Below, piece after piece: positions 5,199 through 59,920 of a stretch of 64,000 nucleotides of DNA. Under the pieces are notes generated by a model, which was given only the letters and a program-made list of their open reading frames with translations, made no database searches and was not told the DNA's origin. A program made the translations under genes and the position numbers. The DNA is taken from NCBI GenBank assembly GCA_000092065.1, contig CP000595.1, one strand, 5' to 3'. Within the stretch, counting starts at the first letter, position 1, and every line of letters begins with the position of its first letter. This stretch comes from Ostreococcus lucimarinus (lineage: Eukaryota).

Positions 5199-6914
5199 CT
5201 ACCCGCAGTGCGCCTCGACGGCTCGAACGATCGCCCTTGTCGTCTCCTCGACGCGCGTCTCTTCGCTCGCCTCGACGTAGACGCGAACGCAATCCTCCGT
5301 ACCGCTCGGACGCACGAACGCGCGACATCGAGCGTCGTTCGACGCTCGCACGATGGCGTCGATGGCGTCCTGGAGACCCTCCGGCTCGGCGACGCGGCGC
5401 TCGGCGTCAAAGGTTTGAATCTTCGTCCTGTCCGCGACGACGACTTTGGTTTGTCTCGAGGGCAAATCTTTGTAAAACGATCCCAAACGAGGCGCCTTGA
5501 CGGTTCGCCGTAATATGGCCTCGACGAGTAAGATGCCGCTCATGGCGTCGCCCACGGAGGGATTGATGACCCGCTGCGCGTTCGTCAACGCCAAGAGCGC
5601 CTTGACGGCGGGCATGTCGCGAGCCACCAGCGCCTCCACCGTCGCGTCCTCGATCGCCTTGCTCGCGCTCGGGGAAAACAAAGCCGTCCCGTGGCCGTTC
5701 GATTCGAAGTACACCCCTATGTCGAATTCCTCCGCTCGATGGTGCAGGTGTTTCACCCCCGTCGGCACGCACGCCGGCGCCGCGCCGAGCTCGCGAGTCA
5801 AAAACTCCGTCGACGCTCCGTTGGCGTACGCCGTTTGCACGACGCCCACGGTGATGTCATTCAAATACGGTGCCGCTTCTTTGACGCGCGCGTTCATCCA
5901 GCACGCGATGAGCACCGCCAATTGATCGCCGTCGACCAAATCGACGCCCCCAGCGGCCGTCGTTTGAAAATAAACCAGTCGGTCCGCGTCGCCGTCGATG
6001 GACACGCACCGCGTGCCCGCGGGCAAGTTTTCAAAACCTCCGCGGGTCGGGATAGTTTTTCCCTTTTGCACGAAATCGCTACCGACGCCGTCGTTCAGCG
6101 ACGACGTCGGCTCGTCGCCTCGGTTTCGCAAATCAAACGCGAGCCCGTACGGCGCCACCGCTTCGCCGAGCGACGACAACTTCACACCGCCCACGCCGTC
6201 CGCGCAATCGATCACCACCGTCGCGCCGTGATCGTCGTCTTCGTCCTCGTCTTCGTCCCTCTCCGTCAGCGCGGCGTATCCCGCGGACAAGCGATCGTAA
6301 TACGCGCGCTCCGAGTCGTCGGCGCCGACGTTCGCGCAATACACGTAATAGTGCAACTGCGGCGTCGTCGCGATCCCGCGATCGACGGCCTCGACGCCCA
6401 TCGCGTGCACGCCCGCCAGCGTCGCGTCCGCGAGCGCGCGTCCGCTCTCTCGCGTGTCTCTCGCCACGAAGACGCGCGCCGACGCGTTCGCCGACGCCGC
6501 GTCCGCCGGCGCCGCCGTCGCCATCGCCTCTCGCAGCGCCCGCACCTGCGTCTCCGCGTCCCCGTCCTCGGCGTTCGCTAACATCTCCGCCACGCCCTCG
6601 AGCGCCATCGGCAGCGTCCCTCCCGACGGTTCCACGAGCTTCACGCCGTTATCCGACGCCGGGTTGTGGCTCGCCGTCACCACCATCCCCGTCGTCTTCC
6701 CCCCGTGCGCCATCGCTCGCGCCGCGGCGAACGCGCCCGCTCGAAAGCACGTCGATCGCAACGCCGTCGCCGTCGTTCGGAATCCCGCCGTGCCGTACGC
6801 GAACCGCGTCGGCGCCGATCGATCTCCATCGTCTTCGCGTCGCGGCTTCGCGTGCTTCACCGTCGCCTCGGCGTACGATCGCGCCCAGGGCTCGCGCGCG
6901 GCGTCCGCGGACAT
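5199..6914 (-). CDS. AGM1: Phosphoacetylglucosamine mutase (AGM1/PGM3, alpha-D-phosphohexomutase superfamily)
   Basis: FAYGTAGFR N-terminal motif, TASHNP active-site serine loop, DGDADR metal-binding loop, and C-terminal RPSGTE sugar-phosphate loop. The ORF runs to 7928 (909 aa), but the upstream 337 codons are an R/A-rich low-complexity read-through. Met at 6914 (MSADAAREPW..VKHAKP) fits AGM1 N-termini. Confidence 0.85.
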   Translation of the reverse strand: MSADAAREPWARSYAEATVKHAKPRREDDGDRSAPTRFAYGTAGFRTTATALRSTCFRAGAFAAARAMAHGGKTTGMVVTASHNPASDNGVKLVEPSGGTLPMALEGVAEMLANAEDGDAETQVRALREAMATAAPADAASANASARVFVARDTRESGRALADATLAGVHAMGVEAVDRGIATTPQLHYYVYCANVGADDSERAYYDRLSAGYAALTERDEDEDEDDDHGATVVIDCADGVGGVKLSSLGEAVAPYGLAFDLRNRGDEPTSSLNDGVGSDFVQKGKTIPTRGGFENLPAGTRCVSIDGDADRLVYFQTTAAGGVDLVDGDQLAVLIACWMNARVKEAAPYLNDITVGVVQTAYANGASTEFLTRELGAAPACVPTGVKHLHHRAEEFDIGVYFESNGHGTALFSPSASKAIEDATVEALVARDMPAVKALLALTNAQRVINPSVGDAMSGILLVEAILRRTVKAPRLGSFYKDLPSRQTKVVVADRTKIQTFDAERRVAEPEGLQDAIDAIVRASNDARCRAFVRPSGTEDCVRVYVEASEETRVEETTRAIVRAVEAHCG

Positions 6915-7797
6915 CGCTCGGCGTCGCGTCGCGTCGCGGCGCGCCGTCGTCGCCGCGCGGCGTCGCGTCGTGCCGAATCCACCCATTCGTCCATCCATCC
7001 ATCCATCCATCCGTCGTCTTCCGCACAGCGCGACGCCGCGCGCGATGGCGACGGCGCGCGCGACGGCGCGCGCCGACGCGCGCGTCTCGCCCTCGCGCGC
7101 GCGCCGCGCGACGCGCGCGACGGCGACGACGCGCGGCGCGCCGGACGATTCCCGCGCGTTGGCGCCGACCGCGACGTTCGCGACGACGACCGCGTCGACG
7201 CGCGACGACGCCGTCTCGCGCGCCGCCGACGCGCTCGCGAGCGTCGACGCCGCGACGTGCGCGACGGCGCTCGCGCTCGCGTTCGTCACCGCGCGGTGGC
7301 GCGCGGCGACGCGAGAGCGGAGACGCTGGCGCGACGAGGCGCGACGACTCGACGAGGCGAACCAAGAGCTCGAGTGGCGACTCCGCGTCGCCACCGCGGA
7401 GAGCGACGGCGCGGACGACCTTCGCCGTCGTCGATCGACGCCGCGAGCGAGGCCCGCGAGCGCGCCCGCGACGTCGCCGCCGACGGACGCGCGCGACGTC
7501 CTCGTCGACGGTTTGCGCGCCGAGACCGAGGCGCTGCGCGCGGCGCTCGCGCAGGCGCGCGCCGCGCAGAAGTAGAGCCGTAGCTTAGTCGAAAATGTAG
7601 ACACCGGACGCGCGTTCGGACGTCGATCGCGACGCGTCCGACCGCGGCGTCGTCTCGCGCGCGTCGAGTGAAATAAAACGCCCGCCTCACTGAAAACGCA
7701 TACGTAACATGTGACCAAATCGGGACGGGTTTTCGTGACCGGCGCGCGCGCCAAAGCCCTAACGCGCGTGCGCGATCGGCCTTTCGCGACGCGCACG

Positions 7798-9288
7798 ATG
7801 CCCGCCGCGCTCCCCGTGGTCTCCGTCCAAGGCGGCAACGGCGCCACGAGCGCCCTGCCCGAAGTCTTCCTCTCCCCGATTCGTCCGGACATCGTCAACG
7901 CCGTGCACACGGGGCTGAACAAGAACAACCGTCAGGTGCGGCGGAGCGCGACGCGACCGCGCGATGCGAACGAGGGCGACGCGTGGACGCGCGCGCGACG
8001 CGAACGAGGGCGCGGGAACGAGAGAGCGACGACTGACGAATGTGCGCGCGTCGTTTTTGCGATCGCGATAGGCGTATGCGGTGTACAACCGAGCTGGGTG
8101 CGTCGACGACGCGAACGCGCGATCCATCGCGACCTCGGCGGGCGTCTGAACCCTCACCAGAGAGGGTTTCGGAGGCGCGCGACGACGACGACGGCGCGGC
8201 GCGGTGCGAGCGAACTCGAACGAGAGACTGACGAAAGATCGATTTAAACGAACAGGCACCAAACTGCGGCTGAATCCTGGGGTACCGGTCGCGCCGTGTC
8301 TCGTATTCCGCGCGTTCCGGGCGGCGGTACGCACCGCGCCGGTCAAGGGGCGTTCGGGAACATGTGCCGCGGCGGTCGCATGTTCGCGCCGACCAAGGTG
8401 TGGCGCCGCTGGCACCGACGCGTGAACTTGAAGGAGAAGCGATATGCGGTGTGCTCTGCGCTCGCGGCGTCCGCCGTGCCGGCGCTTTTGCTCGCGCGCG
8501 GTCACCGCGTCGAGGGCGTTCCGGAGGTGCCGCTCGTCGTCGACGACAGCGCGAGCTCCATCAAGAAGACGGCCAAGGCGGTTGAATTGTTGAAGCAACT
8601 CGGTGCGTACGCGGACGTCGAAAAGGTCAAGGCGAGCCGTAACATTCGTTCCGGTAAGGGTAAGATGCGTAACCGTCGTTACGTCCAACGCCGAGGCCCG
8701 CTCGTGGTGTACTCTGAGGACAACGGCGTCACGCGCGCGTTCCGCAACATTCCGGGTGTGGAATTGTGCTCCGTCGACCGCCTCGGTTTGCTCACGCTCG
8801 CCCCGGGTGGACACGTCGGCCGATTCATCATCTGGACCAAGAGTGCCTTCGACAAGCTCGACTCCATCTTTGGCACTGCGTCCAAGAAGAGCGCGTCCAA
8901 GAAGGGCTGGAAGCCGCCGACGAACATCATGGCGCAAACCGACTTGGCGCGTCTCATCAACTCTGATGAAGTTCAAAGCGCCGTCAACGCGCCGAAGGTT
9001 GGTGCTACGCGCGCGCACGCGCCGCTCAAGCGCAACCCGCTCAAGAACAAGTCCGCCATGGAACGCCTCAACCCGTACGCCAAGGTCGCTCGCGAGATGC
9101 AAGCTCGCGCGCAGGAGGAGCGCTCCAAGGCTAAGGCGAAGAAGAGCGCCACTGCGCGCTCGGCGGTTGGCCAAAAGTTCTACGAATCCATGAAGGTGGA
9201 CTCCAACTACGAAGGCGAACTTTTCGAAGATTTCGACGACTGGCTCACCCGCGGCGCGCCCGTGGTGCAAGGCGGCGACGACGAATAA
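7798..9288 (+). CDS. RPL4: 60S ribosomal protein L4 (uL4), three exons: join(7798..7935,8072..8097,8256..9288)
   Basis: Near-identical to conserved uL4 blocks ([20 protein letters not shown] / [57 protein letters not shown]...). Exon 1 ends NNRQ|GTGCGG. A 26-nt microexon (8072..8097, AYAVYNRAG) restores the conserved PYAVSxxAG segment. The second intron runs GTGCGT..AACAG, with ACTGAC branch motifs in both introns. Confidence 0.85.
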
Positions 9289-9497
9289 GCGTCTTAGCAA
9301 CGGACCATTTAGCTCGTTTGTCATTACGAACACACACCCTAATGACCCTAATGAAATTAAGAAACAGTCGCCAGCAGGCTGTGCGACCGCGCTACTTTGA
9401 CTAACTCTCTAGATTATGCTACAAAAACCGTGCTACTACTAATCGCGGCGAGAAGACGGCTCAACTTCTCATCGCTCTATAACAAACGACGCGTTTG

Positions 9498-12400
9498 TCA
9501 TCGGCGTTCGCGCCCCGGTAGCGCGCGAACGCTCGATCCGAGTGCGCGTGAGAGTGCCCTGAGCGCCGACGCCACGGAGGCGCTGGATGAGGATGTTTTC
9601 ATCGCCTCGGGATCGAGCAGGAACGTCACCGCGGCTTCGATGTGTTCGACGCGCCGCGATACTTCGTCGCGCGCGCGATCATCGGTGGATGAAGCGCACT
9701 GCGCGAGGAATTTCGTCGCCGCGACGAGAAGTGCCCGCCCGCGTTCGCTCGCGCTTTCTTCCACGTAGAACGCGTTCGGCGCGAGCGCCGGCGTCGACGA
9801 TGGGTCACCCCAACGCACGTCGCCGAGATCACACGACTCGCGAACGACGGCGGTTTCCGGAAGCGGCGCGAGCGCGTCGCTCAATGCGCGTTCCGCCTCT
9901 TTGCGCTCGAGAGCGACGGATTTGTCGTTCAGCTTTTGCGCCGTGGCGAGCACTGCCTTCAATCGCTCAATCTCAAGCGCGCGAGGCGAGCGATCTTTCG
10001 ATTTTGAGAACAAATTGACCGACACTTGATTCTGCTCTCGACTCGCCGGCGACGCCAGAGCGGCGCGAACGAGAAACGATACCGATGCCGCGGCGTACGC
10101 TCGCGTCACGCGCCACACGGCGTTTGAATTCAACGCCGCGTCGAGCAAAATCGTTCTGTCCTGAACGTTCGGCGCGGTTCCGGTCACGGCGACAGAGATT
10201 GATGTGGGTACGTTCGTCACCGGTCTCCGCGGCTCCTGCGGCAAATCTTGCGCGCGCGCTCCGGGAAACGGAAAGCGCGCGCGAGTCGACGACGGTTTTT
10301 GCAGCGGTCGAGGATGAGGTTGCAATCGCTCCTGACGTTTTCGCTGCTTTGACACCGTCGTCGTCGTCGTCGTCGTCGAAGACGAGGTCGCGGATTTGTT
10401 CTCGACCTCGCGCGCCGCTCGTCGACCCCCAAATAGCGGGACCAAAATATCCGTCAACACTGCGGCGACGCTCGCCGTGGCGTGATGGTCGCCCGATCTC
10501 GTCGAGTCCGTGGCCTCGTGCACCATGACGATGAGCGGAAAGGCCATCGAACTCAACAACATAGAAGGCGCGATGGCGTGGCTTTCGTCTTCGTCGTTCG
10601 TCATCAAGTCGCACATGAATTCGACCGACGTGATGACTCGTCTCGCCGCGCACTTTTGCGGCGCTCTGAGCGCAGAGAGGACAAAGTGTGGAAGATACCG
10701 CCTCATCGCAACATCGCCGACGACGCCGAATGGTTTGTTACCGATTCCCTGTAACGCTTTCGCGAGGGATTCGACGAGCGAGCGCTCGCGCGCGCGTGAA
10801 TTTGGAGTCCCAGTGATGGCTTCGAGGACGCCGAACGTGGCGATGGCGAGCTGTCGCTGTGTCACCGCAAGGACGCGCTCGTTTGAATCTCTCTGCGCCG
10901 TCTTCATCGCGTCATCGATGGCGCACAAATGCGCGCGAAAGACGTCTCGCTCGGACGCTTCCAAGTTCGTCGCCAGGAGCTCACCCAGAGGCGAACGTTC
11001 GTTTCTCGAACCCCAAAACCACGCCGTCGACGGAGGCGAGGGCGAAAGACGAGGAAGCGCGAACGTCGTGTCTTGATCACGAATATTTTCCGCCGACTGC
11101 GTGTCGGCGAGAAGAATTATCGAGGCACAATGTGTGGCCATCTCTCGAACTAAAGCGCCAATGATGCGCGCGTACGGCGCGTTTGACTCGTGTGAGCCGT
11201 CGCGTGCTCGAGTTTGCCGCTTGTACAGCCCGACACAGTGAGCAGGCAATGCGAGGGCGATGCGACGCATGGTAGAGACTACGCGCACGTCACTTTTCAC
11301 ATCCGGCTTGTTGAGCTCTTTCGTCACCAGTGTTGCGACCGCAGCGCGAAAAATACCCTCTTTCGATGTCAAGAGCGCTCCCGGTCGCTCGCCGGCGGCG
11401 ACGACGTGAGATTCGCCGCCAATCTTCGTTTTCCCGCGTAACACCGCCGCAACGGCGGCGCCTCCTTTAGATTGCGACCAACCTACGGTCGGTACTGGAG
11501 AGGCTTGTTGATTCATTGTCAAAAGCTCGCTTCGCGCGCACAACGCAACGGCCAGCGGCGCGGCGCCGCCGGCGACAGAGTCCGCCGCAAACGCCAACCA
11601 CGAGCACAACGTTAAGTCGAAGTCTTTCAAACCGTACTTATCCGAAAATGAACCAGGAGAATATATCGTTGCGAGAGACCTTGACGTGAACACGCGCTCT
11701 CGCCAATCACTTGACAGCGCACGCTTGTCAAGCGCGCCCAGAGTTTCGAGCCCCTCGTTTCTGCATTCGGTGGCGGCGCAGCCGAGTACAGCGAACGCCG
11801 TGGCCCATGCCGCGGACGCTTCGGCGATCACCGCTCCGTCGGCAAACGCGTGAGTGGTCCCTGGTATCGATGGTTCGAGCGCTCCCGTCATTTTTTGACA
11901 GTCGGCCAACGTTGTCATTGCTCGAACTGCTTCCTCTGCTGGTTTCGCTCGGCCCCATTCGCTGCTCGTCGCCCCGCGAGCAAGCCAAATTCCGAGGCAT
12001 GTCGTCACAGCGCGCAGTAAGATGCACCGGGGTGCGGGGTCGTCTCTACAATTGATCTGCGATGCGAGCGAGGTGAAGATTTGCTTCAAGCAAAGCATGG
12101 CTTGATCATCCAGAGAAGATTGCGCGCAAGCGCGAAACAGTTCGATGTGGACGCTTGCGCGATGCTGGAGACGCAGCGCCGCTGGAGACAAAGGGAAGGT
12201 GTGTCCTCCCAATGCCCTGAATTCATTGTCGCTATTCTTGTACGCACACACTTCATCCGTGATTTTGCTCAAGCGAGCGTCGGGAAGCCATTTGCCGAGC
12301 TCGCGGCGTAAAACCTTGTGCTCGCACGCGCACTTTGCGAGATGATCGCCGAGCGCGCGATACAACGCCTCACACGCCGTACCAGTCACGAACCGAGCGT

Positions 12401-14324
12401 TTGCAGCTTTGAAGGACTCATCATACGGTCGCCACACCAAGGGCATGCACGCTTGACAACACGCAGCGGACTTTCGTGCCGTCAAGCGCCAGTCTTGCGC
12501 GGCGCCTGAATTCACACTCGCGCCGTGAACGAGTTTCCACAGCACTCGCACTGGATGTCTATCCGCCGTGCATCGCGGCCACCACGCGACAAGCTCTGCG
12601 ATGCGCTCGCAAATCGCTTGCGTATACTCTTCCTGGCTGAAGTGTGTAGGCGGCACGATCCCGCTCTTGGGCTCTACTGGAAAGCTCGCGACGCGAGATT
12701 CGTCCAACAACCAACCGACGACAGCCCACGCCTGCGTTGCCCAATCCGTGCCCACTGCGTGTTCGAGTTGATAACCTTTGCTGTACCACAGCTTTGCGGC
12801 GATAAAGGTAAGTTCCCACGCCACCTCGAGCGATCTTGCGTGACTGCTGTCGTCGAGAAGCGTGTCTCGCTCGAGCTTGGCAGCCTTTCTAATCGTCTCG
12901 CGTTCGGCCTCCACCAATTTCGGTAAAGTCTCTCGAAGTCCCGTCCAAAGTCCATCAGCACGCTCGAGAAGTGCCATCGCGTGTCCCCAACCGTCTATTT
13001 CGTCCAGCGTCATCTCATTCGAGTCGCCTGGCGTTCGCGCTGATGCGCCGACGCGACCCACGCTCCGGCGACTGACGAAATCCTTCATCGCCTTTTCGAG
13101 CACGCGCAAGCCTTCTACTTTTGCTTCTTCCACCGCCGCAGTCCACTCCAAATCGTCGTCGTTGGAGCGTTCGAATGCAGCCAGCGTGGTGTTGTCAGCC
13201 GTCGTCGTCGGAGCTCGATCGCCGAAGACACGATGATCGAATTTCCACGGCGCCGCCGCCTTCGTGAACACCGTCGTAATTCGAGGTTGCGTCGAGTTGT
13301 CGCGAGCGAGCGCCGACTTGTTTATCTCCCCAAACGTCTGCGTCCGCCGTCCCGTCGAGTTGTCGCGCACCAACAGCACCGTCGGACTCACCGCCTCGCT
13401 CGGCGGAACGGCGCGACGCCGTCTCGCCGGCGACGCCTCAACTTCTCCGACGACGACGACGCCCGGTGACTCGCTTTCACGCACCGGCGAAGACGCGTGA
13501 TCATGTGCCTCGTTCTCATCGTCATCGTCATCGTCATCAAAATCATCTTCATCCCACGAAACCGCCGGTCCTCGGCTCAAAACGTCCTCCACCGATTTTC
13601 CAAACGCCGTTCGTCTCACCATCCCTCGCTTCCCCTTACCGAATCGCTCGTTCACCACGTCCGCCACAGCGAACGATTTCACCCCTCGCGTCCGATCTTG
13701 ACTCGATTCGCTGTGCAACGACACCTCACCGTCTGATATTTCAAATCCTTCCTCGTCCTCGTCGGCGGCGCGTTCGATTTCGTCGTCGCGTTCGCTCGCC
13801 GACCCATCATCCGTTCGTCCTCGCCCATTCGCCCGCGATCGATGCGCATCGATGAGCATGGTCGTGAGCGCGCCTCTCGACGCGTCGTCGTCGTCGTCCG
13901 CGTCCGTGTCGCTCGCCGCGACTTTCCAACGCGCCGCGGCGTCGTCGTCGGCGTCAGCATCGTCCCATTCGTCCCTCACGCGCCGTCGTTTCGCGTCCTC
14001 GCGCCCGCGCGCATCGTCGACCGCGTCGGCGAGGAACGCCTCGACGTCGCGCGCGTCGATTTCGGCGCTCGCGCGCGCGTTCGTCGCGTCGCGAAGCGGT
14101 TTTTCGCCGTCGCGGTGCCGCCGCGACGACGACGACGCGACGGCGCCGCCGACGCGCGCGTCCGCGCGCGCGCGCGAGGACATCGACGACGACGCGCTGG
14201 ACGCGTTCGTCGCGCGTCGCCGCGAGCGACTCGCGAGCGAGGCGCGGTTTGAGGACGGACGGGCGCGGCGGGGACGCGGCGACAGCTCGGCGGCGTTTGA
14301 ATCGCGGCGGCGAACGCGCGACAT
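9498..14324 (-). CDS. Large (about 1600 aa) hypothetical protein with acidic/Ser-rich N-terminal low-complexity region and a long alpha-helical-repeat-like body
   Basis: A 4.8 kb ORF cannot be chance at this GC level. The central 1100 aa have protein-like composition and no repeats. No motif I can assign with confidence. Confidence 0.55.
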   Translation of the reverse strand: MSRVRRRDSNAAELSPRPRRARPSSNRASLASRSRRRATNASSASSSMSSRARADARVGGAVASSSSRRHRDGEKPLRDATNARASAEIDARDVEAFLADAVDDARGREDAKRRRVRDEWDDADADDDAAARWKVAASDTDADDDDDASRGALTTMLIDAHRSRANGRGRTDDGSASERDDEIERAADEDEEGFEISDGEVSLHSESSQDRTRGVKSFAVADVVNERFGKGKRGMVRRTAFGKSVEDVLSRGPAVSWDEDDFDDDDDDDENEAHDHASSPVRESESPGVVVVGEVEASPARRRRAVPPSEAVSPTVLLVRDNSTGRRTQTFGEINKSALARDNSTQPRITTVFTKAAAPWKFDHRVFGDRAPTTTADNTTLAAFERSNDDDLEWTAAVEEAKVEGLRVLEKAMKDFVSRRSVGRVGASARTPGDSNEMTLDEIDGWGHAMALLERADGLWTGLRETLPKLVEAERETIRKAAKLERDTLLDDSSHARSLEVAWELTFIAAKLWYSKGYQLEHAVGTDWATQAWAVVGWLLDESRVASFPVEPKSGIVPPTHFSQEEYTQAICERIAELVAWWPRCTADRHPVRVLWKLVHGASVNSGAAQDWRLTARKSAACCQACMPLVWRPYDESFKAANARFVTGTACEALYRALGDHLAKCACEHKVLRRELGKWLPDARLSKITDEVCAYKNSDNEFRALGGHTFPLSPAALRLQHRASVHIELFRACAQSSLDDQAMLCLKQIFTSLASQINCRDDPAPRCILLRAVTTCLGIWLARGATSSEWGRAKPAEEAVRAMTTLADCQKMTGALEPSIPGTTHAFADGAVIAEASAAWATAFAVLGCAATECRNEGLETLGALDKRALSSDWRERVFTSRSLATIYSPGSFSDKYGLKDFDLTLCSWLAFAADSVAGGAAPLAVALCARSELLTMNQQASPVPTVGWSQSKGGAAVAAVLRGKTKIGGESHVVAAGERPGALLTSKEGIFRAAVATLVTKELNKPDVKSDVRVVSTMRRIALALPAHCVGLYKRQTRARDGSHESNAPYARIIGALVREMATHCASIILLADTQSAENIRDQDTTFALPRLSPSPPSTAWFWGSRNERSPLGELLATNLEASERDVFRAHLCAIDDAMKTAQRDSNERVLAVTQRQLAIATFGVLEAITGTPNSRARERSLVESLAKALQGIGNKPFGVVGDVAMRRYLPHFVLSALRAPQKCAARRVITSVEFMCDLMTNDEDESHAIAPSMLLSSMAFPLIVMVHEATDSTRSGDHHATASVAAVLTDILVPLFGGRRAAREVENKSATSSSTTTTTTTVSKQRKRQERLQPHPRPLQKPSSTRARFPFPGARAQDLPQEPRRPVTNVPTSISVAVTGTAPNVQDRTILLDAALNSNAVWRVTRAYAAASVSFLVRAALASPASREQNQVSVNLFSKSKDRSPRALEIERLKAVLATAQKLNDKSVALERKEAERALSDALAPLPETAVVRESCDLGDVRWGDPSSTPALAPNAFYVEESASERGRALLVAATKFLAQCASSTDDRARDEVSRRVEHIEAAVTFLLDPEAMKTSSSSASVASALRALSRALGSSVRALPGRERR

Positions 14325-46961: not shown

Positions 46962-49844
46962 TTATACGGGCGTACCGCCCCGATCTCGATCTCGATCTCG
47001 ATCTCGATCTCGATCTCGATCCGCGGACTCGCGCGTGAAGCCGTCTCGACCGTTCTCGTTTGGGCAATACTTTGCCACGCCGTCGTCCGAGATGGGCACG
47101 ACAGATTGTTCGCCGGCGTCGTAACTGATCGACGGCGACCACACGAGCTGGATGGTTTCGCCGACGTTCTCGAAGGAGTGAATCCAACCGCACGGCATGA
47201 ATAAAATGTCGCCCGCCTCGACGACGGCGCCGAAGCCGCGCGAACGCGCGATTTTGGGTTGTTTGTCCAAGTCGACGTTGAAGGCGTTCCCCAGATAGAC
47301 GGGATTGTACAACTCTTCACCGCCGACGCGCGCGGAGAGCGGGTAGAGGTTTTCCTCATCGGCGCGATCCCAGACGACGGCGCGTTTCGAGCCTTGAACC
47401 ACTAAAACCATCACGTGAGCCGGTTTGGCGTGATGATGCGCGTGATACGCTCGAACGCCATCGCCACTGGCGAAGAGCATAAACTTTTTGAACTCCGTAG
47501 GTCGCTCGCGAAAGAGTATCTTGGAGATATACGACCAGTCTCCGCGCAATTTCGTTTCGACAGCTGCTTTGACGCGTTCGGCGAGTGCCGGACATTGTTC
47601 AATAATGTGCCACGAGTGTACGCTCGGTGGCCATAAATTATCCGCTGGGTGTAAAAAGTCCACGCCGCGTTTTCTGGCTATTTTGGATTCCCCCATCAAC
47701 TCACTATCGAAAAAATCTCTCAGTGTTTTAATCTTTCCTTTGCCTTCGAGAAAATCCAACGTTTCATTCAGCGTCAAACCTCGTGTCGTTTCGAGACGTT
47801 CGGAAAGATCTCGCAAAAGTTTTTGATGCGTCGTTTTCGTCATAGACTGGAACAATGGCACTATTTTCGACCCCAAGTCGGCGAATGCATCGCCGCATAA
47901 ATCTAAAATGAGCTCTCGCGTCACGACGCTTCGTAGCACAGTTGCAAGGTTAGCGTTTTCGATCACCACTGGTTGCCCTTCCTTGACGTATTTCCGCTCG
48001 AACGCGTCAATTGATAGTGTAGATGCGTCAACGCGCTCGATGTTGTTCCACTGAAAACTCGGATCGCTCGACGACAGCAGCAGCGGTATATCATCATGTT
48101 GCGGCGCCTCGACCGTCGGCGCGCGTTTGTTTCGTTGATGATCCTCAACTCTTTCGCCACGACCGAGGTTGGCTTGATCATCTTGAATTCGAACTAAAGA
48201 CTCTAGGAAAGACGTAACACTTTGGGCATCGTTCGGTCCGATGAAACTCTGTGCGATCGCATTCAACTCCTTATGATTTCGCACATACGGCCCAAAGTGT
48301 GACGTTTTCATCTCGCGTCTGGCTTTTAGTGACTCTTCCACGGGCCACGGACAATTTAATGGATCGCAACACGGCGCATTAATGTCATACTGACTTTCTG
48401 CTTGAAGCAAAGTAGTCTTAAGCGCACCCTCAAAGCCGTAACGATTCAATAAAGTCGCGCGATCTTTCAGAAAGGCGACATCTTCTTCGGCGATGCTGTA
48501 CTTTTCCATCAACTCCTCTATTGTTGCGTCAGTGACTTCCGCCAAAAACGCGCTAAACGTGGAAGGAAACGTGCGGTGAATGGCACCCCCCTCCACCCAA
48601 CATCTGTAATCTAAGATAGCTCCGATAGTCGGTGACCAGTTTCCGTTTTCAAGCTCCACGATGCACGCCGGTTTAGTTTCGTTGGCAGACTTTGCGTGGC
48701 ACCTTTCCATCCACGGCAAAGTTTTTTCTTTCTCATAGATCACATAACCTGCAACATAGTGCCAGTGATGGCGCGTCCCGGGAATGCTCACTGTGCTGGT
48801 TTCGTCCTCACGTTTCAACATGTCCTCGTTGTCTATCAGCATCAACGACCCTTTGGCTTCGTCGATGAAGATGTTGAATATATTTCTGTCGTGGTTACCA
48901 AGGAGGAAGTCCATCAGAGTCATCCCTATGACGTCCTCTCGCTTAAGTCGCGATACAACGAGAAAAAGTTCTTTCGTCATCATGTTCTGGCCTGGTCTGG
49001 CACCATTGATATCAGTTGGCGCGATTCCCTTTGCCCAGTCTGTGACGAGAACGTGAGTGTTTTGCTTTCCACCAAGAGAACGTGTGTCGCGTGGCGTGAA
49101 AAACTTCAAAGTCTTTGCCTCCGTAGGCGACACAAGTCGCCCGAACCCCATTGTTTCGATCAATCGATGGATGGCTGATATCCTTTCCGGGGATCGATCA
49201 CGCTGACTGTGGAAACCGCCACACGTTTCGTCAACCGGCGTCGCGTTTGCGTGTTGACGAAATTGTCCACGAATACCGCACCAAGCCTTGACGCTCACCT
49301 TTTTCCCTTCGCTCGTAACTCCTCGCAACACCATTGCCTCAGATTTGCCGACATACCTCCCTGGATTTCCCGCGTCGATGCGCTCAACTTTGACGTCGCA
49401 GTCGCAGCGCTCGCACCACCCACGCGAGTCGACGACGTCGTCTTCGCCCAGCTCGGAATGAGGCACGCATGTGGAGCAAGACGAACACGTCTCAAAGCTC
49501 GCGCGTGTACGCTTGTGATTTGTGTCTGCCCCGCGTTCATCGTCACTATCTTTCCGCACGTCGGCGTCGGCGTAATCAGCGTCAGCGACACCATCGGCGA
49601 GTTTCAGCGCTCTAACAGCAATCGTCTCGCGACGCGGCGACGTCCTCGTGAGTGCGACGGTGAGCACGCACACGAACGCGATAGAATAACACGGTGGTTT
49701 CCACCGCGCGGGCCTTCGACGCCTCTTCGTGGCGTGATGCCACATCGGAGGCGCGGAGTGACGTCGGGACGGCGACAAGCGAGAAGGCGTCGTAGAACGC
49801 ATGGGAACTAAAGCGACGCGTGCGTAACGAATGCGCTGCTTCAA
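46962..49844 (-). CDS. JmjC (cupin) domain protein with an N-terminal kinase-like domain and C-terminal (DR)6 tail
   Basis: C-terminal JmjC fold (HAHHHA..., ILFMPCGWIHSFENVG). The N-half contains a catalytic-loop-like LLGNHDRNIFNIF...LIDNE segment of uncertain family. The last codons are translated from a (GATCTC)n microsatellite. Confidence 0.65.
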   Translation of the reverse strand: MKQRIRYARVALVPMRSTTPSRLSPSRRHSAPPMWHHATKRRRRPARWKPPCYSIAFVCVLTVALTRTSPRRETIAVRALKLADGVADADYADADVRKDSDDERGADTNHKRTRASFETCSSCSTCVPHSELGEDDVVDSRGWCERCDCDVKVERIDAGNPGRYVGKSEAMVLRGVTSEGKKVSVKAWCGIRGQFRQHANATPVDETCGGFHSQRDRSPERISAIHRLIETMGFGRLVSPTEAKTLKFFTPRDTRSLGGKQNTHVLVTDWAKGIAPTDINGARPGQNMMTKELFLVVSRLKREDVIGMTLMDFLLGNHDRNIFNIFIDEAKGSLMLIDNEDMLKREDETSTVSIPGTRHHWHYVAGYVIYEKEKTLPWMERCHAKSANETKPACIVELENGNWSPTIGAILDYRCWVEGGAIHRTFPSTFSAFLAEVTDATIEELMEKYSIAEEDVAFLKDRATLLNRYGFEGALKTTLLQAESQYDINAPCCDPLNCPWPVEESLKARREMKTSHFGPYVRNHKELNAIAQSFIGPNDAQSVTSFLESLVRIQDDQANLGRGERVEDHQRNKRAPTVEAPQHDDIPLLLSSSDPSFQWNNIERVDASTLSIDAFERKYVKEGQPVVIENANLATVLRSVVTRELILDLCGDAFADLGSKIVPLFQSMTKTTHQKLLRDLSERLETTRGLTLNETLDFLEGKGKIKTLRDFFDSELMGESKIARKRGVDFLHPADNLWPPSVHSWHIIEQCPALAERVKAAVETKLRGDWSYISKILFRERPTEFKKFMLFASGDGVRAYHAHHHAKPAHVMVLVVQGSKRAVVWDRADEENLYPLSARVGGEELYNPVYLGNAFNVDLDKQPKIARSRGFGAVVEAGDILFMPCGWIHSFENVGETIQLVWSPSISYDAGEQSVVPISDDGVAKYCPNENGRDGFTRESADRDRDRDRDRDRDRGGTPV
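46982..47020. repeat. (GATCTC)6.5 hexanucleotide microsatellite, coding for the (DR)6 C-terminal tail of the JmjC protein
   Basis: Read directly from the sequence. It lies within the final 20 codons of ORF 46962..49844. Confidence 0.9.
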
Positions 49845-49879
49845 TCACGATAAGTCTATCTATTGATTATTGCTTAATA

Positions 49880-52800
49880 CTATTTTGGGGATTCCCGCGA
49901 GTTCGTGGAGTGCGCGGTGAGATGGCGCTCGTCCAAGGCGATTAAACGTTCGCCGCGTCGGTGTGTTCGAGCTTTCCAGCGCTCACGTAAATCTTGCAAC
50001 TGTGAGCTCAAAGCGCCGTGTTGCTGGCGAATAGTAATCGTAGAGTCAGCCTTGATCGTTTCAAGTAAATCGTCGTCGGCGAAAGGAAGACGTTGACCAG
50101 TCATGCTTCGAAGTTGGATGCGTTCGCTTTCCTTTGCCATTTTCTCTTGATGAATGATCTCTTCGTCTCTCTTGGCGTCGAATTCGTCGACAATCGCCTC
50201 TTCAAATTCCAAGTCGCGAATAGCGCGCTTGATGAGGCCTTCTTCGCCCTCTTCGCGGAACTGGCGAACCAACGTTCGGGCAAAATCATACCATGCCCAT
50301 GCGTGCAGGATGAACAACAAGGCCGTGATGAGATCGACAAAAGTCGAGCCTTGTCCACCTTGTTCGCCTGATTGTTTGAAAATCAGTCCGCCGGTGAATG
50401 TTGCCATAGTAGCAAGTAAGCCATGTGTCTCGATCTTTGCGTACTTTTCGCCGGCATACGGTTTTGCGACGATGTGGAATACAAAGAAAAGTTGCAACAT
50501 ACAATTCACCGTGTATCCACCAATGACTGCACTTCGTCTAGATACGATCACTATGAAGATCAGGATGAATTTTCTCGCGAATATGACCCATTCCCACCAC
50601 CACGCGGACTTGACATTGATTCCCTTGAAGAGCAAACCGAGACGATATTGCACCATTGCTGAATCGTGCTCGCCGACAATGTCTTCTCCGCGAGCGAGCT
50701 GCAGCAAACCGTATGGAATACCGACGATATACAGTATAGCCCAAACGATGACCATAAACAAGTAAAGTGAGTAGGCGGTGCCCCGGCATTGGACCGAATA
50801 GTCGGATACAAAGTGTCGATCGCTGTCGCCAGACGTACCAGTGCACTGCGTGAACTCAGCCAAATATTGAACAAGGGTGGGATAGAGAAGCCACAGAGTC
50901 GCGACGAGCCATGATATTACTATGTCGTAAGCTCTGATGTTTCGCACTTCTTCAAGACCGACATCGTGCTTGTTCACTTTATTCGTGTTACCACTATCGA
51001 TGGCGTTTGTTTCTTCATCTTCAGCAGAATCATTTGCCTTTGTCTTCTTCGTGGCTTCCACTCTAGCTTGGGCCGTTGCCTCTCTCAACTCTTCGACGTA
51101 CTTGATAACCGTGAAGATGATGAACAAGAATATCATCAAGCCTAGTGGGAGCAACTCGTGAAACAGTAGATTTCCGTAAAACTTCCAGCCAATGGCGCAC
51201 TTTGCTGACGCCGACCGTATGTCAGGTAACGAAAGCTTCTCGGCGATAAGTAAGAATGCTTTCATCGAATCCGGCCATGCGAGGTCTAAATTTTTCGCCA
51301 ACGCTGTCATTTGTAAATAGGTGACAAACGATTTTATCATGCCGACGACTTGTGAACTTCGGCGTTGATTGACAACCCGAATGAGCCACACCAGCAACAA
51401 TATCCAGAGAAAGTTGACGACGACGATCGGAAAGTTGAGCACTCGATATGCTCCTGCCGAACAATCGTAACATTTTGGTGGATATGCTTCTCGAATGGCG
51501 TGGTACGCATAACCATTCGCACAAGCTGCGCACATAGCACCAGTGTACCCTGCATCAAGACATGTGCTGTTTACGCCGCCTAGGCACGCGTCAGGGTACG
51601 GACACGCGCGAAATTTCAGCGTTTGTCGGTCAAATCTACTGAAACCAGGAAGCGCTTCGACATTTTCGAGCTCATCACCGTAACATTTTGCACCTTTCGG
51701 GCATGCCATACATTTGTAATCATCGAGTGGGAGTTGTCGATAATAGCTCTCGAATGGGACACTCGTTTGAGAGATGCAGTGGCAGGAACTCTTGCTCACG
51801 TGACCAAGGGCGCCTAAAAGTTGCACTCCTGACTGTGCTTGATATGTTTGCCTCAATCTGCCGTCAACTCGCGAAGTATCCATGGAGATTGGGCACGACG
51901 TGCATGCTCCGTCACCGTGCGCCACTTTGTAGAAGCCATTCTTGCACGGCACACACATGCCATACGGGTGAAGAGCATCGAGCCATCGAGATGACCCAGA
52001 TGTAGCTGTCTTATATAGAGTTATATTCGTTTCGACATAAATGGTATCGATATCTTCAGTATATCCCGTGCCTCCACTAATGTCGGCGGTGAAGCCAGGA
52101 ATGCACTCGCACACGCCAGAGCGAAGCACGCTGTTCGGTTTGACTGTTGAGCAATTCATGACCGTCGTTGGAGTTGAAGGTACGATACTCACATTCAACG
52201 TTGAAGCCGAAAAATTCAGCTCATAGGCATTCGCGCGCTCACCGATGATTGTGATTGAATCGAATTTCGCCAAGCCGTTCACCATCGCCGCCTCTGTCCC
52301 TGAAATGCTCGCCACAGCGGGCGATACACTGACCGTAAGCGTCGTATTGATATCGACGCACACGTTTCCTACAGAATCGATCGCCGCGATGACTGGTGCA
52401 GGCGAAAGTGCGAAGTCATTTTCGTTTATGAAGGGAGGTGCCGTGACGACGGCCAACGCTGTCGGCGCGCCAGGGACTACGGTGAACTCCAACATGTCAG
52501 TCTCCAGCACAGGATAGAGCGCACCAGGACATCGACTTGAGCCACATGATGAAGCGAATCGCAAGCGATAGGTCCCAGCTAATGCATTTTGAATATGCAG
52601 ACCGACATTATAGTGTGTGTCGGGCGCAATACCACTATACCCAGCCTCCCTGCAATATGATGGTGCGGGGTTGGTGTACACCACTCTGTACGTGTAAGCA
52701 CCAGTCGTGGGATTACTGGAGACCACAGTCCTCGGGCTAGAGTCAAGTGAATCTTTGCACCATCCCACTCCACCATTTACTGCGAGAAGAGATCCATCCC

Positions 52801-55800
52801 ATTCGGCTTGCAAGGTTGGTAGCACACTTGCCCGTGGTTGATCCTCCGCTGGCACGAAAGAAAATAGCTCAACCGTGATGTTACGCGCTTCGGTGTCCCA
52901 CATCGAGCCCACATGATAACCGCCAGGATCAGTCATTTGCACGACAAAGTCACGAAGATCCAGGGTTTGCGCTGCGATATATTGTGCAGGATCCCGACAC
53001 AAACCTCGGTCGACACGTGTGAACGAGTTACCGGTGCACGTGTCAAGCGCCGCTGGGTACCCAGCGCTGTAAGTCAGTTGTGTGGAGACCGAATCGAGAC
53101 CCGCTGTAGAAAACGTCAATGAGTACGTTCCGGTGCACGGTCGATAGAATACGATATCATCAAACACCGCTGTGCCCGCAACGATAGTCTGAGGTGTGTA
53201 TGATACATTCGTCTCAAAGTTGCAAGCGCTCACGACCACGCGCTCCGCCTTTACAGAAACTTCGTAATTTAGGTTGAGCGCATTCAAGCCTGCATCGACC
53301 ACACGAATCTGAATCATACTCAATTTTACTTTTTTTGCCGTGGAATACGCAGTCTGCAACGCGATTGCTGCACCGCTGGCAGGTGACGTGAAAGTCTGAA
53401 CAATTAATCCACCATTAATATTTTGCATGAAAAAGAAAAAATAAGTAAGCCTTACCGGTGAGATGAAAAGCGCACTTGCAGTGCCAATCGTAATCGTAAA
53501 TGTACGAGTCGCGGGCGCAACGCTGAGCCCTAACGCGGTACAATTGTCGCAGTTGAAAGAAATCACATAATCCCCGATCTGTAATTAATTGTGTGTGAGG
53601 ATGAAAGTTCTAATGAAATCTGTCATCAATGGGAGCGTACCTCTGGGGCATTGATCACTGTGTCACGAAGTAGTGTACTGTCGGTTCCCGCCGCTATGAC
53701 GCCATTTCTCCCGCTCGTCGCAAACGTATGCCTACATTTTGAATAAAATTAATTAATTCCGGTTATGAATTAATTAGAATCGAAACGTACCTTTGACCCA
53801 CGATACTGGCGATAATACTGTACTCGTGAGTGTTAAGCGACCCGAAACGATTACCTGCGTCATCTGCGATCGCAATTTCGAAAGGGCCGAGGGTTGTTGA
53901 TGCCGTCGCCGGGTATGATCCTTGTGGTGAATTTGCCACGACCAGTTTAGCTGGATCTCCTAACGCCACTGTTACCGCATAAGTCGCAACGGCCTTGCCG
54001 TTGAGATAAAATACGATATCGTGCTGCTGCGCAGTCGGCGCGAGCAGCACGAGGTTCTTAAACTCAACGACGCCGGGTGTGCCGCCCTGTGTATTTAAAT
54101 AAGTTAATTAATTGTTCTCCGTGAAATAAATAATTCATCGCGTTCGAGCATAGTTGACTCACCTGAGTTGCACACGTCGTAGTGCTACCACACGATATCG
54201 CAAAAGTTTCCCCTCCTATCAAGGGATTAATTCCCTGTGGATAAGCCGCCAATTCGGCGGTTTGGCAGACAACAAATATTTGTGCCCCGGTCGGCGAAGC
54301 CGAAATAAAATTCCCTCCGCCATCGTAAAGTCGCCCAACTAGAGGACTAGAAGCGTTCGCAATCGATGTTTCTAGCTTAGATTTGAATGTTCCACTACCT
54401 TGTGTTTCGTCGAGGATCAATTGTGCCGCATTTCCCAAAGTCACGGAAAAGTAGTACTGTGCACCCAGCAGACCCGGCGAGTGGATGTCGACGGCGTACG
54501 TACCGATGTACGGCTTGGCGATGTGTAGTCCATCAAAATAGCTTCCACCAGACTCAGTGTTGGCTTCAAAAGTCGCCACTGATGTACATGATACTCCATG
54601 CAGTGTCGACGATGTACTGGCAAGCCCAGCACATTCGCATGCGTTGCCTTCACCAGTTCTTCTGCACAAGGTGACATTTTGCGGCGATAAGTGCACACGT
54701 CTGCTAGGACATGTCTCGCAAGCTTTCGTTTCAAGATCATCGACGGGATTGAAAGCTCCGTCGAGAATAGTCACCACGACTGGGTACATTGCAACGTCCG
54801 ACGCGGCGCGATATTGATGACAAGTGCAGTTGACATTAGTTTGGCACGCTCCGTCGACTGTGGCGCAGTACGGCAGTAAGCCGAGGTGATTGGATCGCCC
54901 TGCCGTGATCTCTAAATCCACGCTTGCAGACCTCAAACTCGAATCGGACGACACGAAAGTCAAATTGTACGTTCCTTTCTGCGGCTTGACGAGATGCAAA
55001 CCTGAGAACGTCGCAGTCCCAGCGCTCGAAGTGGTTTCCACAAGAGAGCCGGTCCTCGGGTACAGTGAAGTATCTGTGTATACAGTAAGTACCGACGTTC
55101 TTGCGATTGTTGTCGCATTTGCACCGAGTATGAACGGATGAATTTCGACGTTTGTGTCATTCATCATCGCCGTCAACGTAACTCCGTTCGGCAAAGTCCC
55201 CGTCGGCGACTCATTTCCCGCCCCATCCACCGGTACGACGACGAAGTCATCCAGAGGCACAGAGTGCCCGGCTGAGTATGCTGTTGCCTCGGATAGTTGG
55301 ATGCTTTCAGTGAATGATGGTGAAAATTCTAAGACTTTGGGGCTGGTGACCTTGAATCCGCTCACGGCTCCAATCAAAACGCTCACCGTGAGAACTGTAC
55401 TTTGTAGCTTTCCCACGCGCAACTCGCCACTCACTTCAGCGCCAGTCTCAATGACATTAAGGGTGTGCGTACCGACTTTCGGTGAATTTGCAATCAAACC
55501 CGTGAAAGAAACTTGACCGTTGCCATTCGTGAACATCGCAGTCGTTCCAGAAAGTTTCAAAGTTTCGCAAGTCACTTGAATGGTACGATTTGGCGCTACT
55601 GCATCCGTGGTTGAGTGACGATCCGCGGTTCCCATTGAATTGCCGAGCATATCTTGAACGTATACCGTGAACGAACCCAATCCTACAGATTGATCAGCTG
55701 TTACCGATGATAATATCGATTGACTCGAAGCTAGTTCATATCCAGCATCTCCAGCTAGCACATTCACCACTTGGAGAACGGGTGTTAAATCGCCAGACGA

Positions 55801-58800
55801 GAATGTCAATCCGAACTCCCCGACGACAGGTCCGACTACTTTGAGATCAGAAAATCGCCATACACCGCTGTCGTCTCGTTTTACTTGCAAAGTACCATCC
55901 AAAGTGATACCAGCCGATGCATGTACGGTCACAGTACGCGGCGTAATTTCCGCCGCACCGACAAAGTTATTCCCCCCGTCGTATGCGCCAATGATAATTT
56001 CACCTACGGATTGCTTGGGTGCCTCGGCGTAAACTGTTCTCTTACTATACGTCCCATTTATACGAAGGTAAGACGGTTCGCCGATCTCCATTTGCATAAT
56101 TGAATGCGCGCGATATCGAACTCCATTCAACGTCGTCGTAAACTGAACAATGTACTTTGAAGCCTCGCCAAAGTCTCCTCGTGTGGCATCGCTATACGTG
56201 ATATCGTCCGTGGATCCTACAGCTCGTGAACCAGAAGGTGGCATAGCGACAAGTCTGAGATCTGAAAATGATACTCGACCATCATTAGTCGTCTTGTTCA
56301 GCGTTCCAGTGAGCTGGGCTCCGATACTTCTCTCTCTGTAGTCTTCGTTGCTGTTGAGTGTACCCGTCACGAGTGACGCTTGTACGGTGACGTCATCAAG
56401 AGATAGCGTCTGAAGCATACTTCCACCGATGTCAACGATGTCGACTGTCAAATGTCCGATCGATACGTTTCGGGCCGCGTCGAGCACGACGACATCTGTT
56501 GGAAATAACGTAGCACTTGATATCATAGAATTCTCCGTCGCCGCGCCGGGTGTCACCTTCAAACCACCGCTCGAACCTGGTGTTACGGATAAATAGGCGT
56601 GTGCAAGTACACCAAGGTCATCACTACATGCACCATCATCATTGGTACAATCGGTTGCGGTAAAAGTGATCACGTATTCCCCAGCGGTTGGTATCGAGGA
56701 TAGCTGTGGAGTGAATGTTGCGATGCCGTCCGAAGTCTGCACTGATGACGTTGCCTCGGTGATAGCGACCTCTGACGGCCCAGAAATACTCGCCGAAATT
56801 GTGTAACCTTTCGTACCTCCTTGACCACGGTCATAGTTGATTTCAGTTCCATCGATATCCACAAGTCCAACCTTGAACGTTCCAAGTGAGAAATCTGTCG
56901 CGGCAACTCGAGCTTGATGCGAATCCGGTCCACTCAAGAGCTTAACTCCAACTGGTGGTCCATGAAGCTTCAAAATCCCTCCACTAACGTAATCAATACC
57001 GTTCAGTGCAACTGCGACCTGCGCATCTTGCGGTTGTCCGTTCGTAAGCCATGGAAGCGGACTCCCAACTGGATTGGCGCACCTTCCATTGACTACATTG
57101 CACACAGGACACTTGATTTCTGACGAACTAACGAACACCGCACTGGTCACACTCGTCGTGTTATCGTTGAACTTACATTTTAAATCGGGCGAATTCAGAA
57201 ACGGACCTCCGAGTATGCGAAGCAGTACTGGCGCGAGATCGGCATCCTCGCCTGTGAGAAGAACCTTGGCGTCATCTGAACCAATCTTTGTACTAATTAT
57301 GACGGCTGGATCGTGATAACGTAGATATATCTGACCAGAGTTCCACAGCGAGTTGGTCCAAATGCTTGTTGGATCGCTCGAATCGGTTGGTAATCCATCG
57401 AACGATATTTGGACTTCGCTATAACCTATAGTGGAGGAGTTTGAATTTGACGCCGACGGTGCCATGCATGAGAGCTCTGTCGCCGAAACATAAGTTGCTG
57501 GCGACCAAGATGTCTTCGAAAACCCATTATTAGCGTCATAAGTGTGTCCAAACCTACATGAAATCGAATGACTCATTCCACTGGCAAGGGTAGGCGAATA
57601 AAAGCCAGATCCATGAATTTTTATCGGCGTTCCAGACGTGAGCGCGCTGATGTGAGTCGGCTCGATCCCCGAAACGATCACCGTGGAGTACTTTGTGTAC
57701 GTCGTACTCGCCGCAGAACTCACCGCGAACACGCTGCGCTCGCCCGGTACGGCGCTGATGCCACCGATGGTGTGGCTTTCTTCAAATGTCCCCACACGCT
57801 TGAAACAACCGCTTATACAAGCACTAGACGTGTCCGTACCCCCTATTTCGATCTTGACGATCCGACTCTTACCGCTTTCACGCGATCCCACGGCCCAGTA
57901 CATGAAATCTTTTTCTCCTGCCGTCGCTCCGGTTTGAACGGTAGCGCTCAGAGCATCACGCTCTCCGAGCGCTGCGTCAAGAGCAATCACGGCGAGTGGA
58001 CTATCGCCTTCAGCAAAATTCAAGTCAAACATGAAGATGCATGCCGCGCGATTTTTACACCCCGGACAGTCGCCGTCTCGACCTGAAGTGCCCACGTATC
58101 CATAGCCGTTGTGCTTTGTGATCGCAGTAAACGTCGAAAAGCGTCCTTGCTTTGAATCGAGCTGCCCTTCGCACGCCTCGAGCACCTTGACGTTTGTTGA
58201 GTCCAAATACATTTCAACCCCATCGCCGTCACGAGTCCCTGAGTTTGTATTCACCTTGAACAAAGTAGGATAAAAGGTTTTGCCATCGGAGTCATCCAAG
58301 AGGGCAGATCCAGCGAAGATGACATAGTTGACACCTGTTTGAGTATGCGCCACACTCGTCTCCAACCTCATGGCGTCCGGGGCAAGCGAACATGTGGGGC
58401 ATTTAGTGCTCAGTAAACCCGGAGCTAAGAAGTTTATTCCTTTATCGTTCAAACTGCCGTCGACGTGACCAATGACGCTTCGCGACAGACCGTCTTCGTG
58501 CGTGGCCTTGTACACTATCATGCCGTTGGCTGGGTCTGTGCCCATGGCATCCAAAATGTACTGCTCTTTTGAGAAAGTCGCACTCGCCTGACCATTTGTC
58601 AATGAACTGAGAACGCAGTTCGCCCACTGCGATGAATCTGATGAGCATGTAGTACCGACATACTTGAAAAGCGAAAATCTAAACTGATTTGCCGTGGTCT
58701 GATGCCACATGTTCACTGGCACGACGACGCCCGTCAGCGCTGTCGACAAATCGGCAGCCATTTTAGCGTACACTCCGTACCAACCGCGCGACTTCTGAGG

Positions 58801-59379: not shown

Positions 59380-59920
59380 CGTCGCGCGGCGAGCGGCGCT
59401 TGAAGTCGCGCGTTCCCGCACGCTCACCCCGCGTCCCGCGCGATGGCCGCGGCTTCCGACTTCACGAGACGATGCGACGCGCGCTCGAGCGCGTCGTCGG
59501 CGCGAGCGGCATGGACGACGAAGCGAATGAGCGCTGAGACGAAGTTTGTGTGTTATACACGCACCGCTCGGCGTCGACGCGGTGGAGTGACGCGGCGACG
59601 CGTTGACGCGAGACTCGACCACCAACGACTCCAAGCGACGAATGGAATCGTCGCGGCCGCCTCGGCGACGCGGTCGTTGGTTCGTTTGTGAGTTTATTTT
59701 CGTTTCAACGAGTTTTTACGCTTTGAAGAGTAATAATGGACTATTATTTTAGATATTGAAAAAGGAAAGTTGCAAACCCCAAGTCATGTCGCGAATCGCC
59801 CGTCTCGGCGCCCAAAGGCGCTTTGAGACGACGAGGTCGAAGACGCTAAACGTGCGATTTTGAGACGACCGCTCGATCGCGTGCGACGAATTTGAGTGAA
59901 ACTTTGAAATAATTTGAAAT

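Follow-up and report, generated by a model that had tools for sequence, protein, structure and literature searches.

In strict usage, the name micro-exon is kept for internal exons of up to about 27 nucleotides (nt). A wider definition, applied to the micro-exons of plants and animals, admits lengths of up to 51 nt (PMC7714060). Closely spaced introns within one gene have been described in other settings as well, namely the introners of Micromonas and the near-identical same-gene intron pairs of Oikopleura, both of which have been suggested to stem from reverse splicing (PMC3879977). Moreover, according to the relevant passages of Lanier et al. (2008, PMC2367439), introns of Ostreococcus lucimarinus are found in excess in highly expressed genes. 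Here, we describe a 26-nt exon, GCGTATGCGGTGTACAACCGAGCTGG, in RPL4, the gene for ribosomal protein uL4, which lies in a 64,000-nt stretch of O. lucimarinus DNA (GenBank assembly GCA_000092065.1, contig CP000595.1). This whole stretch was analysed and is referred to below as the window, and all positions are counted from its first letter. The microexon (8072..8097, + strand) is a real coding exon of RPL4; it is internal, is bounded by two verified junctions and falls within both the wide (51 nt or less) and the strict (27 nt or less) definition.

Like the micro-exons of plants and animals, the RPL4 exon is an ultrashort internal coding exon that provides a stretch of a conserved domain. It differs from them in being constitutive rather than tissue-regulated, in having a length that is not a multiple of three, with no in-frame skip isoform, and in being probably young and placed between short introns in an intron-poor, compact genome. 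With the Micromonas introners and the Oikopleura pairs it shares a probable recent gain within the Mamiellophyceae and the presence of two close introns in one gene, but the two RPL4 introns are mutually dissimilar, have no other copies in the window and appear to differ in age. The pattern reported by Lanier et al. is matched in that RPL4, a highly expressed ribosomal gene, keeps and seems even to have gained 5' introns in a very compact genome; that study is statistical, and those of its passages that matched our search mention neither RPL4 nor the microexon, nor that intron positions turn over (PMC2367439). A literature search combining Ostreococcus and microexon likewise returned no title, abstract or matched passage on the RPL4 gene. 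The microexon is nevertheless an ordinary and already annotated feature of gene structure, not a new class of phenomenon, and our additions to it are the confirmation by a transcript, the correction of a 3' exon and the evidence of its youth.

RPL4 extends on the + strand from an ATG at 7798 to a TAA at 9286-9288, and its three exons, when joined, form an in-frame coding sequence of 1197 nt for 398 amino acids (aa). The coding part of exon 1 (7798..7935, + strand, residues 1-46) runs from ATG to CAG and ends in phase 0 with AAC CGT CAG at 7935 (the end of KNNRQ), after which GTGCGG opens intron 1 (7936..8071, + strand; 136 nt, 71% G+C, acceptor TAG). The microexon, preceded by GCGATAG and followed by GTGCGT, is entered in phase 0 and left in phase 2, and codes for A47-Y-A-V-Y-N-R-A54 together with the first two bases of G55. 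Intron 2 (8098..8255, + strand; 158 nt, 65% G+C) has the 5' site GTGCGT and the acceptor CAG. The coding part of exon 3 (8256..9288, + strand) begins after GAACAG with G CAC CAA ACT GCG, which completes G55 and enters HQTAAESWG, and it continues as a single unbroken open reading frame (ORF) from H56 to E398 and the stop codon. The original prediction, made from the sequence without database searches, had given these exon ends, the coordinates of the microexon and its ATAG and GTGCGT flanks, and rereading of the sequence found all of them correct.

The predicted path was then found in RNA. The transcript contig L001, a polyadenylated, cDNA-type Joint Genome Institute (JGI) contig of 1475 nt to which protein P0002 led, follows the window colinearly in three blocks of 99.7-100% identity: its positions 299-349 correspond to window 7886-7936, positions 347-375 to 8070-8098 (the microexon block, at 100%) and positions 374-1467 to 8255-9351. 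Read base by base, it passes from AACCGTCAG to GCGTATGCGGTGTACAACCGAGCTGG to GCACCAAACTG, so that the microexon is joined to CGTCAG on one side and to GCACC on the other, both exactly as predicted, and both introns are absent from this spliced part. At its end L001 reads CCCTAATGACCCTAAAAAAAAAA / GACCCTAAAAAAAAAA, whereas the genome continues as GACCCTAATGAAATT; since the tail departs from the genome sequence, it is a poly(A) tail and the contig represents processed mRNA. The poly(A) addition site thus lies directly after GACCCTAA, at ~9351, which delimits a 3' untranslated region (UTR) at 9289..9351 (+ strand). A cDNA with a different, frame-restoring splice path had been named beforehand as the observation that could overturn the three-exon path through the 26-nt exon; the polyadenylated contig follows that very path instead. 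A related transcript contig, L002, also contains the segment encoded by the microexon. At the DNA level, an independent European Nucleotide Archive (ENA) metagenome contig, L094, is 99.9% identical to window 7160-12288 over 5129 nt, with 5 substitutions and without gaps, and has both RPL4 introns; hence, the structure is no assembly artefact. Given that L001 has both junctions and that the sister lineage described below encodes the same nine residues contiguously, the microexon goes beyond what chance would produce.

The product of the joined exons is the cytosolic ribosomal protein uL4 (RPL4, L4e), as judged by homology. It matches the Pfam families PF00573 (Ribosomal_L4; E 2e-34; 119.3 bits against a cut-off of 25.8) and PF14374 (the C-terminal domain of eukaryotic L4; E 5.6e-27; 94 bits against a cut-off of 27), and it is colinear with the family over its full length, the microexon segment included. 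Among solved 60S/80S ribosomes, 83 uL4 chains of the Protein Data Bank (PDB) match the product, the best being the plant chain 9h3g_BT (E 8.7e-148). Residues 14-115 align to this chain without gaps, and AYAVYNRAG stands column for column with its QPYAVSKKAG. The microexon supplies residues 47-55, a conserved segment directly upstream of the stretch that opens exon 3. The named best match among ~5.8 billion proteins was P0005 (National Center for Biotechnology Information, NCBI), the 'predicted protein' of O. lucimarinus CCE9901, which UniRef assigns to uL4; this match places the window in a genome of the CCE9901 type.

Comparison with P0005 (387 aa) showed that the public model uses the same exon 1, microexon and exon 3 as ours: the two proteins are identical over residues 1-358, and the residues of the microexon are among them. 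The microexon is thus already in the public annotation and hence not new. After TARSA, at 9165/9166, P0005 departs to LASRAQRNGQRRGAAGDRVRRKRQPRAQR, for which the coding sequence lies at window 11526-11612. As worked out here from the protein sequence, this 3' end of the public model implies a 2.36-kb intron starting from the GT at 9166 and a terminal exon that lies antisense inside a 1608-aa ORF (9498-14324, minus strand). L001, by comparison, is unbroken to its poly(A) site, and a continuous C-terminus is common to all homologues. The 3' exon of P0005 is very likely wrong, and, since the transcript and the homologues are continuous to 9288, the 7798-9288 model improves there on the public one. 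For annotation, the arrangement of three exons, the 26-nt one included, is confirmed, and the reference should exchange its terminal exon for the unbroken ORF that runs to 9288. The expectation that so small an exon would easily be missed held only in part: the public model has it, while ORF-type callers did truncate the gene on metagenome contigs (protein P0011 starts at M97, and a spurious 170-aa ORF is called on L094). These truncated products are not specific to the microexon, because callers of this type fail at any intron.

Both introns carry the signals usual for this genus. They start with GTGCG and end with GATAG (intron 1) and AACAG (intron 2), conforming to GT...AG. Intron 1 contains the branch motif GACTGACG at 8031-8038, with its branch A (8036) at a distance of 35 nt from the end of the intron, and a T-run, GTTTTTG; in intron 2 the same motif lies at 8226-8233, with the branch A at 8231, 24 nt from the end. 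GACTGACG is the extended branch point known for the canonical introns of Ostreococcus (PMC3879977, which refers to Irimia and Roy, 2008). With GT/AG ends, this motif and precise removal in L001, both introns have the properties of U2-type Ostreococcus introns and are ordinary members of the canonical set, from which they show no notable difference. We postulate that, with a full set of signals (GTGCG, GACTGACG and YAG) within ~150 nt in each intron, splice sites would be paired across the introns (intron definition). If recognition indeed takes place across the introns and not across the exon, the small size of the 26-nt exon would be no obstacle. No Rfam match was found in the introns (the only hit, mir-8521 with E 0.75, lies inside exon 3), and neither intron folds unusually, the z values being -1.43 (intron 1) and -0.65 (intron 2). 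Intron 2 also contains a short inverted repeat, AACCCTC...GAGGGTT, at window 8149-8171, resembling a degenerate telomere-repeat pair.

The first part of L001 is unlike the rest. Positions 1-308 are an inverted copy of window 7795-8098 plus GCACC, and the contig as a whole is a hairpin chimera. The inverted arm keeps intron 1, yet reads GCTGG/GCACC, i.e., intron 2 has been removed from it. This suggests, from one partially spliced molecule in a chimeric assembly, that the downstream intron can go first; intron 2 would then be excised before intron 1, fusing the microexon to exon 3 ahead of the splicing of intron 1. The arm differs from the window at two sites, one of which, 8030, is also changed in L094. 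This C-to-T substitution, common to L094 and L001, stands immediately 5' of the branch motif of intron 1 and is a strain polymorphism beside a splicing signal. Additionally, L001 is without one GAC codon near the C-terminus (window 9274-9285; GGDE vs. GGDDE), and therefore comes from a strain other than that of the window.

The age of the two introns was approached through the RPL4 loci of relatives, in which introns were mapped by tblastn or blastn and reading of the boundaries; their positions are given in the numbering of the window protein. The window lineage (window, L094 and L001) has introns at Q46 (phase 0) and G55 (phase 2). Its nearest relatives, the syntenic metagenome contigs L015/L017 and L039, which diverge from the window by ~9% in the exons, have introns at Q46 (153 and 146 nt) and K102 (150 nt), and in them the residues of the microexon region are contiguous; L039 also aligns across intron 1 of the window. 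Another Ostreococcus, represented by L003 and the transcript L014, has the K102 intron only, as do the Micromonas-like loci L005/L006. Other Micromonas-like loci carry introns at L25 (phase 2; L004) or at A41 (phase 0; L009/L010), with L037 and L041 having an intron in the same region as the latter, and Bathycoccus (L007/L008, named through cluster member P0181) has one at P30 (phase 2). In the outgroups, Coccomyxa (L011) has no intron before residue 120 and Marchantia (L012) none before residue 365, while Gonium (L013) has one at K106/V107 in phase 0, the equivalent of K102. The K102 intron was located at 4304-4639 in L003 and at 2960-3109 in L015, and is found in L039, L005 and L013 as well, whereas the corresponding phase-0 site K102/V103 of the window (8400..8401, + strand) contains no intron. 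No intron at the G55 position was found in L015/L017, L039, L003, L004, L005/L006, L007/L008, L009/L010 or L011-L013, and among the loci examined the Q46 intron occurs outside the window lineage only in the sister clade (L015/L017 and L039). A neighbour-joining tree of exon 3 groups L015 and L039 as sister to the window, L094 and L001, followed by L002 and L003 and then by the Micromonas-like loci, with Bathycoccus outside. Within the microexon, the coding sequence differs from that of L015 by five synonymous and zero non-synonymous substitutions, as expected under coding constraint.

The distribution of the K102 intron, including its Gonium equivalent, indicates that this intron is old and that its absence from the window genome is an intron loss. 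Since no other examined relative has the G55 intron, intron 2 is most simply explained as a recent gain. By parsimony, the Q46 intron would date back to the ancestor that the window lineage shares with its sister clade; the window lineage alone would then have gained the G55 intron, 26 nt 3' of the Q46 intron, thereby creating the microexon, and along that same branch it would also have lost the ancient intron at K102. Taking these results together, we consider it highly probable that the window holds a single-copy cytosolic RPL4 with a constitutive 26-nt exon between two canonical introns, of which intron 2 is a recent gain of this lineage, and that the K102 intron has been lost. Several points weigh against this reading. 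The transcript support comes from one assembled contig, L001, which derives from a closely related strain and is itself a hairpin chimera, and inclusion of the microexon is read at the level of assembled contigs. The polarity of gains and losses depends on metagenome contigs and a distance tree of one gene. Finally, intron definition is deduced from intron size, and the order of splicing from one partially spliced molecule.

Six intron positions (L25, P30, A41, Q46, G55 and K102) are thus seen in the first ~310 coding bases of RPL4 in the Mamiellophyceae. A lineage usually has one 5' RPL4 intron, and the positional turnover is unusually high for one gene. Three closely related Ostreococcus lineages alone present three intron sets in the first 310 coding bases of this essential gene. 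The locus thus illustrates, on a small scale and cleanly, how introns have recently turned over in a eukaryotic genome that is among the most compact. As the newest intron lies only 26 nt from an existing one, the gene is a possible test case for intron gain and for the tolerance of short exons under intron definition.

A mature transcript spliced in another way, either with one intron only, defined by another donor or acceptor, or through regulated skipping of the microexon, is conceivable because exons 1 and 3 share their genomic frame, so that 17 single-intron, in-frame GT/GC...AG paths can be drawn between them. Yet 15 of these need GC donors, the GT donors of the other two (GTGGAC and GTTTCG) are unlike the real GTGCG, and every one of the 17 either loses the nine conserved residues or replaces them with non-homologous sequence. 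None of the 17 was seen in RNA, where the segment is present in both L001 and L002. Exact skipping, for its part, is out of frame and gives NRQAPNCG followed by a stop, i.e., termination after 5 codons. Nor does the exon look like a regulated microexon: 26 is not a multiple of 3, only inclusion is found in L001, and L002 has the segment. We regard a different mature path as extremely improbable. The microexon itself could also be ancient, if both flanking introns were ancestral and every other lineage had lost them independently; compact genomes often lose introns, and the K102 intron is indeed retained patchily across the same taxa. However, the G55 intron is missing from two other Ostreococcus, several Micromonas-like loci, Bathycoccus, Coccomyxa, Marchantia and Gonium, and the Q46 intron is confined to the sister clade, so that many independent losses would have to be set against one or two gains. 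An ancient origin is therefore very unlikely, and the recent gain of intron 2 remains the reading that we prefer.

Where intron 2 came from is a separate matter. Possibly, it is the K102 intron itself, moved 144 nt upstream in one event that erased the K102 site and created the one at G55; on this route, a partly processed RPL4 RNA would have taken up the excised intron by reverse splicing and would then have been reverse-transcribed and returned to the locus by gene conversion. The K102 loss and the G55 gain map to one short branch and to a single gene, 144 nt apart, and an RNA that keeps intron 1 while the downstream intron is gone, as the scenario requires, exists in the inverted arm of L001. 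Moreover, ACGAGAGACTGAC is common to intron 2 and to the introns at K102 in L015 and L039, as are a GAT.CGATT close by and an AGGGTT upstream, in unchanged order, and reverse splicing has been proposed as the mechanism of intron propagation in the related Micromonas (PMC3879977). On the other hand, the shared block mostly overlaps the general branch-site consensus, Smith-Waterman comparison of intron 2 with the K102 introns of relatives gave z values of 1.4 (L015; not significant) and -0.3, and an nhmmer profile of the K102 introns matched intron 2 at E 0.98 only, at rank 4. The same tests applied to positional orthologues fared no better (z -0.6 for intron 1 against intron A of L015, while the intron-A profile missed intron 1 altogether); since even these positive controls are at chance in GC-rich, low-complexity sequence, the similarity tests are without power on a K102 origin. 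A stretch of the L003 K102 intron scored z 3.3 against each of the two Q46 introns, through gapped GACGCGATG-type repeats; the Q46 introns are mutually dissimilar, and this match was not relied on. We think relocation of the K102 intron unlikely. The broader speculation that in the Mamiellophyceae a 5' intron of RPL4, bearing a telo-box-like telomere-repeat element in almost all lineages, is kept by selection while its position shifts again and again, the microexon being a snapshot of a K102-to-G55 move of 144 nt upstream by reverse splicing, is in our view just as doubtful. Still less probable is an origin from a mobile, introner-like element of the Micromonas kind, two insertions of which would have given both introns. 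Lineage-specific intron gain in a genome of the Mamiellophyceae would suit such an element, both introns begin with GTGCG and carry GACTGACGAA, and a MAFFT alignment of the pair gives 75% column identity. Nevertheless, the local score of intron 1 against intron 2 (33) hardly exceeds the mean of dinucleotide shuffles (32.3; z ~0.1), being reached by 227 of 500 shuffles, and the two introns arose on different branches, as intron 1 is common to L015 and L039 and intron 2 is not. Other matches in the window are only GC-rich, low-complexity stretches of 12-29 nt, rather than the many near-identical copies that define an introner element. With a shuffle z of ~0.1 and no other copies in the 64-kb window, an introner or duplicate origin was rejected.

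The surroundings of RPL4 contain hexamers resembling telomere repeats. One CCCTAA, in the context CAAAGCCCTAACG, lies at 7757..7762 (+ strand), 41 nt upstream of the ATG, and two more are in the 3' UTR, at 9337-9342 and 9346-9351; strict CCCTAA has eight copies in the window, all on the + strand, and three of the eight flank RPL4. Almost all RPL4 loci of Ostreococcus and of the Micromonas-like group also have CCCTAA or TTAGGG in the promoter, 5' intron or 3' UTR, and Bathycoccus does not. Introns bearing the hexamer occur in L003, L004, L005, L009, L015, L039 and L041, irrespective of the intron position. In plants, the telo-box is an element of translation-related genes. By analogy, the clustered hexamers may be a telo-box-like regulatory element, and the copy at 7757-7762 is a possible candidate for a telo-box-like promoter element. 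A literature search for telo-box and Ostreococcus returned no title, abstract or matched passage on these motifs in the Mamiellophyceae.

Upstream of RPL4, and divergent from it, a phosphoacetylglucosamine mutase-type gene occupies 5199-7928 on the minus strand, with PGM_PMM_I, AMG1_III and PGM_PMM_IV domains. This divergent arrangement of the mutase and RPL4 is kept in L003, L005, L009 and L015. Farther along the window, the region of ~48000-60000 has a G+C content of 0.49-0.53, compared with ~0.60 elsewhere. This low-G+C block contains two minus-strand ORFs, at 49880-53566 (1228 aa) and 54064-59634 (1856 aa), in which no Pfam domain was found, and it is adjoined by an ORF at 46962-49844 (960 aa) with a Cupin_8 domain.

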